From NCBI GenBank assembly GCA_965262915.1, contig OZ253564.1, positions 1,824,001 through 1,888,000 on the forward strand: DNA of 64,000 bases, in the 5' to 3' direction. Positions 19,233-51,751 of this stretch are shown here, one piece after another (the first letter of the stretch is position 1; every line of letters starts with the position of its first letter). This stretch comes from Candidatus Spongiisociaceae bacterium (GTDB lineage: Bacteria > Actinomycetota > Acidimicrobiia > Spongiisociales > Spongiisociaceae). The position numbers and the translations under genes are program-made. The notes beneath the pieces are model-generated. The model ran no database searches, was not told the DNA's origin, and saw only the letters and a program-made list of their open reading frames with translations.

Positions 19233-19334
19233 GAGAGTGCTGAGAAACCCCCCGTTGGGCCGGCGGTTGATGACAAAATGCCACGTCAGCGGACGACGGG
19301 CCAACCAATTACCCGTTTTTCGGCATTCTCCCAA
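19229..19334 (+). mobile_element. MITE-like family A copy 3
   Basis: CTAGGAGAGTGCTGAGAAAC begins in the dut TAG stop; same interior as copies 1 and 2. Confidence 0.75.
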
Positions 19335-19373
19335 TGGTCGGCATTCTCCTAATGGTCGGCATTCTCCTAATGG
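19320..19373 (+). repeat. 3 x 18-bp tandem repeat at the MITE A/B junction
   Basis: tcggcattctcc(c/t)aatgg x3. Confidence 0.9.
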
Positions 19374-19532
19374 TCTGCTTGAAGACAACTTGCCGTGCCC
19401 TGCTCGCCACCGGCGCCCCTCGCTGCATCCCGCCTCCTTGACGTACGCTGTCGGTACGCCTTCGTCGACGGGCCTTGCGAAGAACGCCGCTGCCGGCGCA
19501 TACCACGACGCCTTTCACAGACAGACCACCAG
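19367..19532 (+). mobile_element. MITE-like family B copy 2
   Basis: ctaaTGGTCTG...tttcaCAGACAGACCAccag; collinear with 12098-12265. Confidence 0.75.
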
Positions 19533-26576: not shown

Positions 26577-26607
26577 TCAGGTGTCAGACACCCCAGGCGC
26601 GTAAATG

Positions 26608-27829
26608 TCAAGCTGCGGCTCGGTCGATGGTGGTTCGGTGTGCCCAGGCGGTGTGTTCGTTGTGGGGGGTTTGGTGTTTGAGGCAGCCGTGGAGGATGCC
26701 GACGAGTCGGTTGGCTAGGGCTCGGAGTGCTTGGTGGTGGAGGTCGCCGGCTGCTCGTTTCTGGTCGTAGAAGGCTCGGGCTCCTGGGCTTGGGGTTAGG
26801 GAACAGAACGCCCATTGGTCCAAGGCGTCGTAGAGACGCCGCTTTTCGGACGTGGCGGGCCAGGACAGCACGTTTGCGGCCCGACGCCACGGTGATGGGC
26901 GACGTTCCGGCGTAGTTCCTGCGAGACTTGGCGCTGGTGTAACGGTGGGGGTCGTCCCCGAACTCACCGAGCGCCCGGGCGCCGAGCACAGTACCGAGTC
27001 CTGGCTGGGAGTGGTAGATGACGGCGTCCGGGTGCTGCTCAAAACGGGTCTGGAGGGTTGCTTCGAGTTGGCTGATCTGGCGGTTGGCCTCCCCAATGAT
27101 GCTCACCAGTGCCCCGACAGTCGCTCCGAAGGCGTCCTCAACCGGCCCCGGTGCGGCGAGGTGAGCAGCTCGGAGGCCCGCTTGGATACGGCGGGCGACC
27201 GGATCGAGGTTGCGTCGCCGTCCGCCCCTTTTGAGCGCAGCTCGGATCTGGGGCAACGTCAGGCGAGCGCCCATGCTGGGGGTGGGTGCCCGACCCAGTA
27301 CGGCCACAGCGTCGGAATGGGCCAGGTCAGCGAACGTTTCCAGCGCTGCGGGATAGTACTCGCGCAGAGCGTTGCGGACCTGGTTGGTGTGACGAGTCCG
27401 AGCCCAGATCAGGTTCTGATGGGTTCTGGCCACGATCTTGATACCTTCCGATTCGGGGCTGTCACCGGCCACGGGACGGTGGTTGTGACGGTCGGTGCGT
27501 ACCAGATCAGCTAACACCTTGGCATCACCGCGGTCTGATTTAGCTCCGCCCAGGCTGTGACGGTCCCGGTAGCGGGACACCGCCCTAGGGTTGATCGCAT
27601 ACACCACATAGCCCGCCGCGACCAGCGCACCGACCCACAGCCCACGATCGGTCTCGATGCCTACCACTACCTCAGCCGCATCCGATGCGTGCTCGGCGAC
27701 CATCTGGTGGAACCTGGCTATACCTTGGATCCCTTCCGGTATACGGGCGAACCCCAGCCGGGTCCCACCCTCGTCCAGCAGATACACATCGTGGTGGCCC
27801 TCAGCCCAGTCGTTACCCACAAAAATCAT
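26608..27829 (-). pseudogene. IS110 DEDD recombinase/transposase with a frameshift near 26845
   Basis: FVGNDWA..HHD, GIET, KSDRGDA..LA, YAGTSPITVASG; C-terminal RRLYDALDQWAF...ALANRLVGILH lies in another frame. Confidence 0.88.
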
Positions 27830-27873
27830 CTTCGCCTCCCTCGTGCGGATCGATTCTTGCCGAGCTGTGGAGA

Positions 27874-28062
27874 ACGCCTGGCGGCGACCTAATGGATCAG
27901 TGCTCTGTGGCACGCCACCCCATGAGCGCTACAAGCGGCCCTCGCGAACCGGCCGGGGTACGATCTGACACTAGGAATCAGCGTTCCGGGTGCCACCAGT
28001 ACTCACCGGCCGGCCAGCTCAACCACCACACCCTCCCAGACAAACCGGCAGAAGTGGTGGAC
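27874..28062 (-). ncRNA. Putative bridge RNA of IS110 copy 1
   Basis: 5' hairpin plus two hairpins with internal loops; loops carry TGGCACC / GTGTCAG (target) and TGGGGTG / CCATTAG (donor). Confidence 0.8.
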
Positions 28063-28091
28063 CCCCATTAGGTGTCCCACTGTATTAGCAC

Positions 28092-49631: not shown

Positions 49632-49853
49632 GTGTCGGGTGTCGGGTGTCGGGTGTCGGGTGTCGGGTGTCGGGTGTCGGGTGTCGGGTGTCGGGTGTTT
49701 TCGGGTGCCAGGTGCCAGGTGTCAGGTGTCAGGTGTTTTCGGGTGCCAGGTGCCAGGTGCCAGGTGCCAGGTGCCAGGTTTCAGGTGCCAGGTTTCAGGT
49801 GTCAGGTTTCAGGTGTCGGGTTTCAGGTGTCGGGTGTCGGGGGTCGGCTGTCA
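49632..49853 (+). repeat. Heptameric tandem repeat array (about 30 units; GGTGTCG/GGTGCCA/GGTGTCA/GGTTTCA)
   Basis: Directly visible; further units at 26578-26587, 28070-28095, 49949-49957, 51451-51487, 51714-51744. Confidence 0.97.
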
Positions 49854-49964
49854 GTGGTGACTGGCGGGACTGAAGGATGCCCGGTGCCGCTTATCTGTGT
49901 CGGTCACTCGCCCGTTCCGTAGCTGGCCACAGAACCCATCATCAAGGACTGACACCTAATGGGG

Positions 49965-50153
49965 GTCCACCACTTCTGCCGGTTTGTCTGGGAGGGTGTG
50001 GTGGTTGAGCTGGCCGGCCGGTGAGTACTGATGGCACCCGGAACGCTGATTCCTAGTGCTAGAGCGTACCCCGGCCGGTTCGCGAGGGCCGCTTGTAGCG
50101 CTCATGGGGTGGCGTGCCATAGAGCACTGATCCATTAGGTCGCCGCCAGGCGT
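49965..50153 (+). ncRNA. Putative bridge RNA of IS110 copy 2
   Basis: 5' hairpin 49967-50004; target loop TGGCACC (50032-50038) / GTGCTAG (50056-50062); donor loop TGGGGTG (50105-50111) / CCATTAG (50132-50138). Confidence 0.8.
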
Positions 50154-50204
50154 TTCCTCTGCAGCTCTGCTGAGAGTAGACCCACGCAAGAGGGAGGCGA
50201 AGGG

Positions 50205-51428
50205 ATGTTGTTTGTTGGTAACGACTGGGCTGAGGGCCACCATGATGTGTGTCTGATGGACGAGGGGGGATCCCGGCTGGGTTTCGCCCGTCTCCCGGAA
50301 GGCCTGGCGGGTGTGGCCAAGTTGCATGAGATGATCGCCGAGCACGCATCGGATCCGGCTGACGTGGTGGTAGGAATCGAGACAGATCGTGGGCTGTGGG
50401 TTGGTGCGCTCATTGGGGCCGGCTATCAGGTGTATGCGATCAACCCTAGGGCGGTTTCCCGTTACCGGGACCGTCACAGCCTGGGCGGAGCGAAATCAGA
50501 CCGCGGTGATGCCAAGGTGTTAGCGGATCTGGTACGCACCGACCGTCACAACCACCGCCGGGTGGCCGGTGACAGTCCCGGGGCGGAAGGTATCAAGATC
50601 GTGGCCAGAACCCACCAGAACCTGATCTGGGCGAGGGTGCGTCACACCAACCAGTTACGCAACGCTCTGCGCGAATACTACCCCGCAGCGCTGGAAACGT
50701 TCGCTGACCTGGCCCATTCCGACGCTGTGGCCGTACTGGGTCGGGCACCTGTCCCCAGCATGGGCGCCCGCCTGACGTTGCCCCAGATCCGAGCTGCGCT
50801 CAAAGCGGGCGGACGGAAACGCAACCTCGATCCGGTCGCCCGCAAAATACAGAACGGCCTCCGCGCCGCTCACCTCAGCGCACCCCCGGCGGTCGCCGAC
50901 GCCTTCGGAGCGACCGTGGGGGCACTGGTGAGCATCATCGCGGAGGCCAACCGCCAGATCAGCCAACTCGAAGCAACCCTCCAGACCCGTTTTGAGCAGC
51001 ACCCGGACGCCGTCATCTACCACTCCCAGCCAGGACTCGGTACTGTGCTCGGCGCCCGGGCGCTCGATAAGTGTTCGGGGACGACCCCCACCGTTACACC
51101 GGGGCCAAGTCCCGCCGCAACTACGCCGGAACGTCGCCCATCACAGTGGCGTCAGGCCGCAAACGTGCTGTCCTGGCCCGCCACGTCCGAAAAGCGGCGT
51201 CTCTACGACGCCCTGGACCAATGGGCGTTCTGTTCCCTAACCCCAAGCCCAGGAGCCCGAGCCTTCTACGACCAGAAACGAGCAGCCGGCGACCTCCACC
51301 ACCAAGCACTCCGAGCCCTAGCCAACCGCCTCGTAGGCATCCTCCACGGCTGCCTCAAACACCGAACGCCCTACAACGAACACACCGCCTGGGCACACCG
51401 AACCACCATCGACCAAGCCGCAGCTTGA
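50205..51428 (+). pseudogene. IS110 recombinase; full-length ORF with an internal out-of-frame segment (two offsetting frameshifts)
   Basis: DEDD domain intact; FGDDP...YAGTSPITVASG is read only in another frame (about 51070-51190). Confidence 0.85.
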
Positions 51429-51751
51429 CATTTACGCGCCTGGGGTGTCTAGCACCTGTGGTCGGGTGTCAGGTGTCAGGTGTTAGGGGGGCTGGCGGGG
51501 CGGCAAGGTCCTCGGTCTCTTTAGCCTCTGGCGGTGGCGGGAGACAGGTGCAGGGTGTCTTGAGCCATAGCGGTGACCCGATCAGCCCGTAGTGGCCTCA
51601 GTTCCATCATCCTGGCGCCTAGCAACGGACAACCGCCACCAGCCACGCCTCTTCTCATGGCTACTGACCTGCTCGGAGGGCCCATGGCATTCCGAATGCT
51701 GTCCGGTCGCCCCCTAACACCTAGCACCTAACACCCAACACCTGGCCGGGG

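Follow-up and report, generated by a model that had tools for sequence, protein, structure and literature searches.

The window, by which we mean the whole stretch of 64,000 nt analysed here, carries two copies of an IS110-family element of ~1.48 kb: copy 2 at 49956-51450 on the forward strand, and copy 1 at 28071-26586 on the reverse strand. Copy 2 consists of a long non-coding left end, a broken transposase gene and a short right end, and it lies 100 nt from an array of 31 heptamer units (Table 1).

Table 1. Features of copy 2 and its surroundings, with copy 1 for comparison (window coordinates).
Feature	Position	Strand	Basis or remark
Copy 1, core to core	26586..28071	-	right guide GTGTCAG 27971-27965; right flank GACAC 26585-26581; one late transposase frameshift
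Heptamer array, 31 units, adjoining copy 2	49632..49852	.	TRF; shorter array at 51461-51487
Left target half (LT) TGACAC, copy 2	49950..49955	+	equals left guide save one G:T wobble
CT core, left copy (element boundary)	49956..49957	+	single CT at unoccupied paralogous sites
Non-coding left end, candidate bridge RNA about 49967-50153	49958..50204	+	covariance model matches relatives upstream of transposase
5' hairpin	49967..50004	+	folding; length varies among relatives
Target-binding domain	50009..50083	+	outer stem 50009-50028 / 50066-50083; inner hairpin 50040-50053
Left target guide TGGCAC + core CC	50032..50039	+	flank match rates
Target-domain inner stem GGAA/TTCC	50040-43 / 50050-53	+	folding
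Right target guide GTGCT + AG (core complement)	50056..50062	+	reverse complement of CT+AGCAC 51449-51455
Putative target-loop handshake dinucleotide AG (AT in copy 1)	50063..50064	+	position by IS621 analogy
Donor-binding domain	50090..50152	+	tentative closing stem 50090-50095 / 50147-50152; inner hairpin 50114-50127
Left donor guide TGGGGTGGC	50105..50113	+	matches right end TGGGGTG; TGGGRTGTC in relatives
Right donor guide CCATT, then AG (core complement), then GT (putative handshake)	50132..50140	+	reverse complement of CT-AATGG
Transposase gene, copy 2, broken	50205..51428	+	two indels near 51067 and 51190; Pfam; alignment
-35 hexamer TTGACA of predicted junction promoter	51425..51430	+	-10 TCTAAT only in the circle: 51448-51450 + 49958-49960
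Right end GGGGTGT + right CT core copy	51442..51450	+	sequence; copy comparison
Right target half (RT) AGCAC, copy 2	51451..51455	+	target sequence at unoccupied paralogous sites

Copies, transposase and relatives of the element

In the genome, a single contig of 5.06 Mb (G000), we found 23 matches to the element, 11 of which are full-length copies at 84-100% identity. All 11 start with CT-AATG and have CT at both ends, one of them with an atypical right end. Both window copies begin with CT-AATGGGGG and finish with GGGGTGT-CT. The element has neither terminal inverted repeats nor a longer target duplication, and unoccupied sites contain one CT. The non-coding left end is long (about 247-249 nt before the start codon) and the right end is short, with only 22 nt from the stop codon to the end of the right CT in copy 2. 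These are features of the IS110 group of the IS110 family, and we assign the element to that group on the grounds of its sequence.

The protein evidence is consistent with this assignment. An intact paralogue (L002:1750-2967, 406 aa) matches the Pfam domains PF01548 (DEDD_Tnp_IS110, RuvC-like, 2.3e-33) and PF02371 (Transposase_20, 7.7e-9); PF01548 alone was detected in the product of copy 2. The sole solved structure matched was that of the IS621 transposase (8wt6, E = 1.3e-7), with the serine motif …ESG… aligned to …ASG… here. The aligned serine probably corresponds to the catalytic S241 given for IS621 in the available part of its description. The original prediction of an IS621-type element with a CT core is thus borne out by both domains, the structural match, the CT at both ends and the two guide-bearing internal loops described below.

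The 406-aa frame is intact in six of the 11 full-length copies, for example that at G000 1359844-1361321, and broken in both window copies. One frameshift allele, at one site, is common to five copies of different lineages (copy 1, copy 2 and three others), and copy 2 has a second indel; in this copy ~40 codons are scrambled, including the SG serine motif. Since their transposases are frameshifted, copies 1 and 2 would now be relics, or movable only with recombinase from the six intact copies. The copies are also mosaics. Over alignment columns 0-600, copy 1 shows 100% identity with the copy at 1359844, and over the rest with the copy at 2093376. Segments, and with them the shared frameshift allele, have therefore moved between copies by recombination, and because of this mosaicism we dropped an argument for mobilisation in trans drawn from the frameshifted copies.

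Several incomplete or embedded copies were seen along with these. The copies at G000 4420448-4421929 and 3638550-3640031 are embedded in a larger repeat, with ~1 kb upstream and ~150 nt downstream at 96-100% identity, and represent one insertion into another repeated, probably mobile, sequence. At 2736780-2737482 there is an internally deleted copy, made of ~90 nt of left end and ~350 nt of right end, between GGCAC-type target halves. Solo left ends at 2945852, 4518974 and 4967433, together with a 5'-truncated copy at 1035314, are fragments of further lineages. These four fragments sit in a GC-rich repeated motif present in both orientations, and their flanks (…CACC(C/T)CTC-CT…) are the target type of the closest relatives elsewhere, among the best 80 of 242 related loci (L026-L031, L039-L042). 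Within the window, an 18-nt tandem repeat (19320-19375, 3.1 copies) has a unit containing CTC-CT-AATGG, which resembles the left junction of the element family; it lies ~60 nt from the GC-rich motif that is also found beside solo element ends elsewhere in the genome.

A protein-guided scan detected these 242 related loci, the best 80 of which were analysed. Judging by record titles, relatives at 80-83% amino-acid identity among these 80 come from Acidimicrobiia sponge-associated MAGs, and those at 60-74% identity from Rhodococcus, Mycobacterium, Nocardia, Gordonia and other Actinomycetota, in agreement with the actinobacterial lineage that had been proposed. A covariance model of the left end gave 79 matches over the best 80 of 242 loci, upstream of the transposase. 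Across these loci hardly any variation is seen in the donor loop (TGGGRTGTC … CCATTAG) or the CTAATGG end, and the target loop is hypervariable.

Fold and guides of the non-coding left end

The left end folds as the original prediction described, with a 5' hairpin, a second hairpin with the inner stem GGAA/TTCC and a third with GTGC/GCAC. On a single sequence the signal is modest, the fold of copy 2 being weakly better than shuffles (z = -1.71). The outcome of comparative folding depended on the sequences compared. With RNAalifold, compensatory changes were found in 0 of 57 pairs among 12 left ends of this genome, because the copies are too similar; across the 79 relatives' sequences (best 80 of 242 loci), such changes appear in 12 of the 20 consensus pairs, every one of which belongs to the outer or the inner stem of the target domain. 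A conserved secondary structure is thus indicated, with covariation support for the target domain. In the same alignment, 76 of the 79 sequences have an unchanged donor inner stem, GTGC/GCAC. For the donor closing stem, cognate arms pair slightly better than non-cognate ones (means of -17.6 and -16.2 kcal/mol, 0 of 2000 shuffles as good), a small effect with relatedness uncontrolled, and this stem (50090-50095 with 50147-50152) is tentative. A scan of 49700-50400 against Rfam 15 matched no family, giving two chance-level hits only.

The third hairpin carries the predicted donor guides. TGGGGTG (50105-50111) and CCATT+AG (50132-50138) match the right end GGGGTGT-CT and the left end CT-AATGG, that is, both sides of the circle junction, as had been noted for these motifs. 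The donor guides are complementary to the circle junction in 8 of the 11 copies, and three copies have a right donor guide that does not match. In the second hairpin, the left guide TGGCACC agrees with the left flank but for one G:T wobble, also as predicted; at its core position copy 2 reads CC, not CT. By analogy with IS621, dinucleotides 3' of the core complement are candidates for handshake pairing, in which they would pair with positions 6-7 of the non-cognate DNA once strands are exchanged. The donor-loop dinucleotide, GT, complements the AC with which the heptamer left flank ends. The target-loop dinucleotide begins with A in all 38 distinct guide pairs (defined below), complementary to the final T of the right end, and its second position is often unpaired.

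A second donor-loop allele was observed, with GAG for CAT before GGGGTG and CTGCT for CCATT (equivalent to 50102-50104 and 50133-50135). It is carried by the left ends at G000 721289, 288789 and 291612, and partly by that at 3640031, which represent three otherwise divergent lineages. The CTGCT allele mismatches the element's own CT-AATGG left end in three copies. It is absent from all related loci, among the best 80 of 242, whose alignment covers that part of the donor loop. The two copies in the duplicated segment differ solely by the left half of this allele change, which suggests short-patch gene conversion. We also searched for another donor that would fit the variant loop (left-flank motif + CT-AGCAG), and rejected this candidate: it had three genomic matches, none continuing into the conserved left-end sequence of the element.

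The ends of the element would form a promoter when joined. At the right end, TTGACA is followed by 17 nt and T-CT, and joining with the left-end AAT gives TCTAAT, a 5/6 match to the -10 consensus. Among the best 80 of 242 loci, all 31 distinct right ends of relatives have a -35 hexamer with at least 5/6 matches, 23 of them perfect, at 17-18 nt from the split -10. Transcription would be expected to start ~7 nt past the -10, on the first base of the 5' hairpin. Such an arrangement is compatible with the excised circle being the main source of both RNA and transposase expression. Among the sequencing runs that turned up are two sponge metatranscriptomes with small shares of the sequence words, which speak neither for nor against expression.

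Guides, flanks and unoccupied sites

Copies 1 and 2 differ at exactly five positions in the first ~195 nt (50031, 50059, 50060, 50064 and 50120), and about 9% beyond them; four of the five differences fall within the 22 target-loop bases (hypergeometric P = 5.8e-4). Our alignment thus returned precisely the differences, and their placement, that had been counted at first. The one at 50064 is the second position of the putative target-loop handshake. In copy 2 the right guide with the core complement, GTGCTAG (50056-50062), is the reverse complement of CTAGCAC (51449-51455), and in copy 1 GTGTCAG (27971-27965) is that of CTGACAC (26587-26581), both as originally reported. Retargeting by a 2-nt guide change had been proposed from this pair. 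The two guides do differ by 2 nt, but the guide of copy 2 is only 1 nt from the GTGCCAG guide of two other copies.

An alignment was made of the 11 left ends, a further left-end fragment and the flanks of each. There are five forms of the right target guide and three of the left, and each form matches its own flanks. On the right, GTGTC (4 copies) is followed after the CT by GACAC, GTGCC (2 copies) by GGCAC, GTGCT (copy 2) by AGCAC, CTGAT (3 copies) by ATCA(A/C), and AACAT (1 copy) by ATGGT, the last with 3 contiguous matches. On the left, the guides GGCAC+CC, AGGCTC+CT and ATGCTC+CT go with the flanks G(A/G)CAC-CT, AGGCTC-CT and ATGCTC-CT. The left and right target guides complement one half of the insertion site each, and do so on opposite strands. 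Variation is unevenly spread, with 14 of 22 columns variable in the target loop and 24 of 176 elsewhere (Fisher P = 1e-6).

Counting the two copies within the larger duplicated segment as one event leaves 10 independent insertions. Over these, guide and right flank agree at 47 of 50 bases (30.6 on average in shuffles, with 4 of 100,000 shuffles as good), guide and left flank at 54 of 70 (35 of 100,000), and the seven heptamer-targeting copies alone match at 35 of 35 right-flank bases (938 of 100,000); these shuffle tests overstate independence, because the copies are related and exchange segments.

The same relation was then measured on relatives. Of the 79 matches, 52 had one right end that could be identified unambiguously; the other 27 were dropped as truncated, without a right-end match or with more than one. 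The 52 related elements and the 10 events of this genome make 62 events with 38 distinct guide pairs, from each of which one event was taken. Left-flank match rates at -6 to -1 are 0.68-0.97, compared with 0.25-0.59 in shuffles, and right-flank rates at +1 to +5 are 1.00, 0.95, 0.92, 0.82 and 0.66. Matches are at background level at -9, +6 and +7, and at -8 and -7 they are only about 0.1 above it. In total, 366 of 456 positions match, against 157.1 +/- 11.5 in shuffles, with 0 of 2000 shuffles as good. From these rates by position we deduce a pairing footprint of 6+CT on the left and CT+5 on the right. The original prediction that right-side pairing extends 5 nt beyond the core, made from two copies, holds at these clade-wide rates, and the guide follows the right flank in nine more copies and in the 52 related elements. 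The predicted CT+5 pairing is a property of the whole clade.

Matches of this kind could in principle arise by chance between short motifs in a GC-rich, repeat-rich genome: the motifs have only 5-7 nt, and similar heptamers flank seven of the copies. This explanation is refuted by the shuffles just given (4 in 100,000 for the genome copies, none in 2000 for the 38 guide pairs), and the lineages with unrelated targets (GGCTC-CT-ATCA and ATGCTC-CT-ATG) also fit their own guides. We give it practically no weight.

The internal motifs could instead be DNA sites bound by the transposase, such as subterminal repeats, with no guide RNA involved. We consider this very unlikely, as the compensatory changes in the stems indicate that an RNA fold has been under selection, and the left and right guides match different strands, like those of IS621. 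Moreover, the transposase is a homologue of a recombinase with demonstrated RNA guidance, and the conserved junction promoter is placed to transcribe exactly the segment of the predicted bridge RNA.

The heptamer repeats are the family at which this lineage is directed. The genome contains 54 arrays of at least three G(A/G)CACCT units, and heptanucleotide arrays reach 23 perfect units by regular expression and 31 by TRF. The motif …GATCATCAAG(G/T)ACTG(A/G)CAC-CT-AGCACCT… was observed to recur at the borders of some arrays. Unoccupied sites in the genome number 93 for the GACAC guide and 235 for the GGCAC guide, and there are seven unoccupied G(A/G)CAC-CT-AGCAC sites. One unoccupied site shares 18 nt of the left flank of copy 2, a single CT, and 8 nt of its right flank. 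Since unoccupied paralogous sites already hold CT-AGCAC, AGCAC is target sequence and is not carried by the element; insertion adds only the element and one CT. When empty sites were sought in other genomes, the closest of them reached only about 84% identity in the adjacent ppc gene and gave no alignment in the intergenic region; the single match in genome G022 was weak, and we base no claim on it.

These sites bear on a further explanation, in which the element itself includes the five bases that follow the right CT and they were inherited with it, so that the match between loop and flank would be an internal repeat by descent and not targeting. It draws on the arrays themselves, where taking out 7 extra bases preserves the phase, and the boundary is unreadable from array sites alone. 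However, CT-AGCAC stands next to the same left flank at the unoccupied paralogous sites, and the copy with the GGCAC guide lies in an array whose upstream units are also GGCACCT. In addition, the flanks of relatives that share a guide cease to agree immediately past +5, and the donor loop sets the end of the element at GGGGTGT-CT. Inheritance of these bases is already largely refuted, and we regard it as highly improbable.

Some copies and loci depart from the common ends or core. In one lineage the right end reads GGG(G)ATGCTC-CT instead of GGGGTGT-CT (G000 290131, for the copy starting at 291612, and a solo right end at 4804817). The final six bases are those of this lineage's own left target half, ATGCTC, and of its left guide, and not those of its donor guide. 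The same end is found at two separate insertion sites, which makes it a trait of the lineage rather than a chance local event. At about G000 3392150-3392185 the genome reads GGATGCTC-CT-GGGGTGT-CT-ATGTC, which is the target of the ATGCTC lineage with the last 7 nt of the right end and a second CT between its halves. This could be the footprint of an excision that used a CT 9 nt inside the right end. Finally, two related Acidimicrobiia loci (L059 and L061) start with CC-AATGG, have GG for AG at the core complement in both loops, and CC at the core of the left guide. It seems that the core dinucleotide has here changed naturally from CT to CC and that all guides have changed with it.

Proposed mechanism and comparison with known systems

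We conclude that the region is very probably (roughly 0.88) the left end of an IS110-group element encoding a bridge RNA, with the guides of sister copies diversified to matching sites. Transcription, RNA-guided recombination and any current activity of the element are here deduced from sequence comparisons. In outline, the excised element would circularise, so that the right end (…TTGACA-17 nt-T) joins CT-AAT, and the junction would create a sigma-70-type promoter with transcription from about 49967. Folding of the transcript would give the 5' hairpin and two loops, one binding the target and one the donor. The latter would pair with the circle junction (TGGGGTG / CT-AATGG), and the DEDD/serine recombinase would exchange strands at the CT. 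As the target loop would be free to mutate, sister copies of this genome have gained different guides and occupy matching sites: GTGTC at GACAC, GTGCC at GGCAC, and GTGCT (copy 2) at AGCAC, all of them unit variants of the heptamer family. Two further lineages have unrelated targets.

A more ambitious combination of these elements is possible, though we think it rather unlikely. One bridge-recombinase lineage might be co-diversifying with a heptanucleotide microsatellite family within one genome, with single-base guide steps (GTGTC, GTGCC, GTGCT) opening array variants (GACAC, GGCAC, AGCAC) as landing pads. Broken copies would have moved in trans under their own guides, and the donor-loop allele GAG…CTGCT, probably spread by gene conversion, could be a re-specified or interfering bridge RNA rather than a product of decay.

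Under the bridge-RNA reading the element offers a compact natural data set, made of 11 copies in one genome and about 50 close relatives (from the best 80 of 242 loci), in which bridge-RNA retargeting would be readable in single-base steps. The predicted junction promoter, the putative handshake positions and the unoccupied target sites are all visible in it. It should be useful for picking new bridge recombinase orthologues and for studying natural changes of target.

Both the bridge-RNA principle and the natural covariation of guides and targets have already been published (Durrant et al. 2024). As given in the available part of that report, IS110-group orthologues have a variable target loop and a conserved donor loop, and bins of guides yield concordant target motifs; IS621 has a left guide of nine bases and a right guide of four, with longer right guides in some orthologues.

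The closest system for comparison is IS621 of E. coli (Durrant et al. 2024; Hiraizumi et al. 2024), compared here through the portions of these reports that were available. Like IS621, our element has a DEDD and serine Tnp recombinase with a CT core, and a predicted left-end-encoded RNA with a 5' hairpin, a target loop and a donor loop. The left guides would likewise read the bottom strand and the right guides the top strand, and the target is again a repeated extragenic sequence; the candidate handshake dinucleotides of our element are placed 3' of the core complement by analogy with IS621. Unlike IS621, the protein is distant, aligning in only two short stretches at the E-value given above, and it has 406 aa against the 328 residues of the solved IS621 chain. 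The predicted footprint is 6+CT / CT+5, in contrast to the guide lengths of IS621, and the target is a heptamer microsatellite, as opposed to a REP element.

The natural orthologues of Durrant et al. 2024, again as far as the available part describes them, share with our element the variable target loop, the conserved donor loop and the targets concordant with guides. Here, in contrast, the diversification is a radiation within a single genome, in single-base guide steps that follow variants of the repeat unit. The IS1111-group seekRNA elements and the REP-targeting ISPpu9 and ISPpu10, to judge from the accessible parts of their descriptions, belong to the same transposase superfamily and also show RNA-guided, sequence-specific insertion into repeats. 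However, those elements have a long right end, downstream of the transposase, and it is there that the guide RNA is located, whereas ours would lie in a long left end, with only the short stretch of 22 nt after the stop codon. Since the mechanism and its natural covariation were already published, the system is of a known kind and leaves the known mechanism unchanged: it is a clear natural case of within-genome guide diversification by that mechanism, and not a new system.
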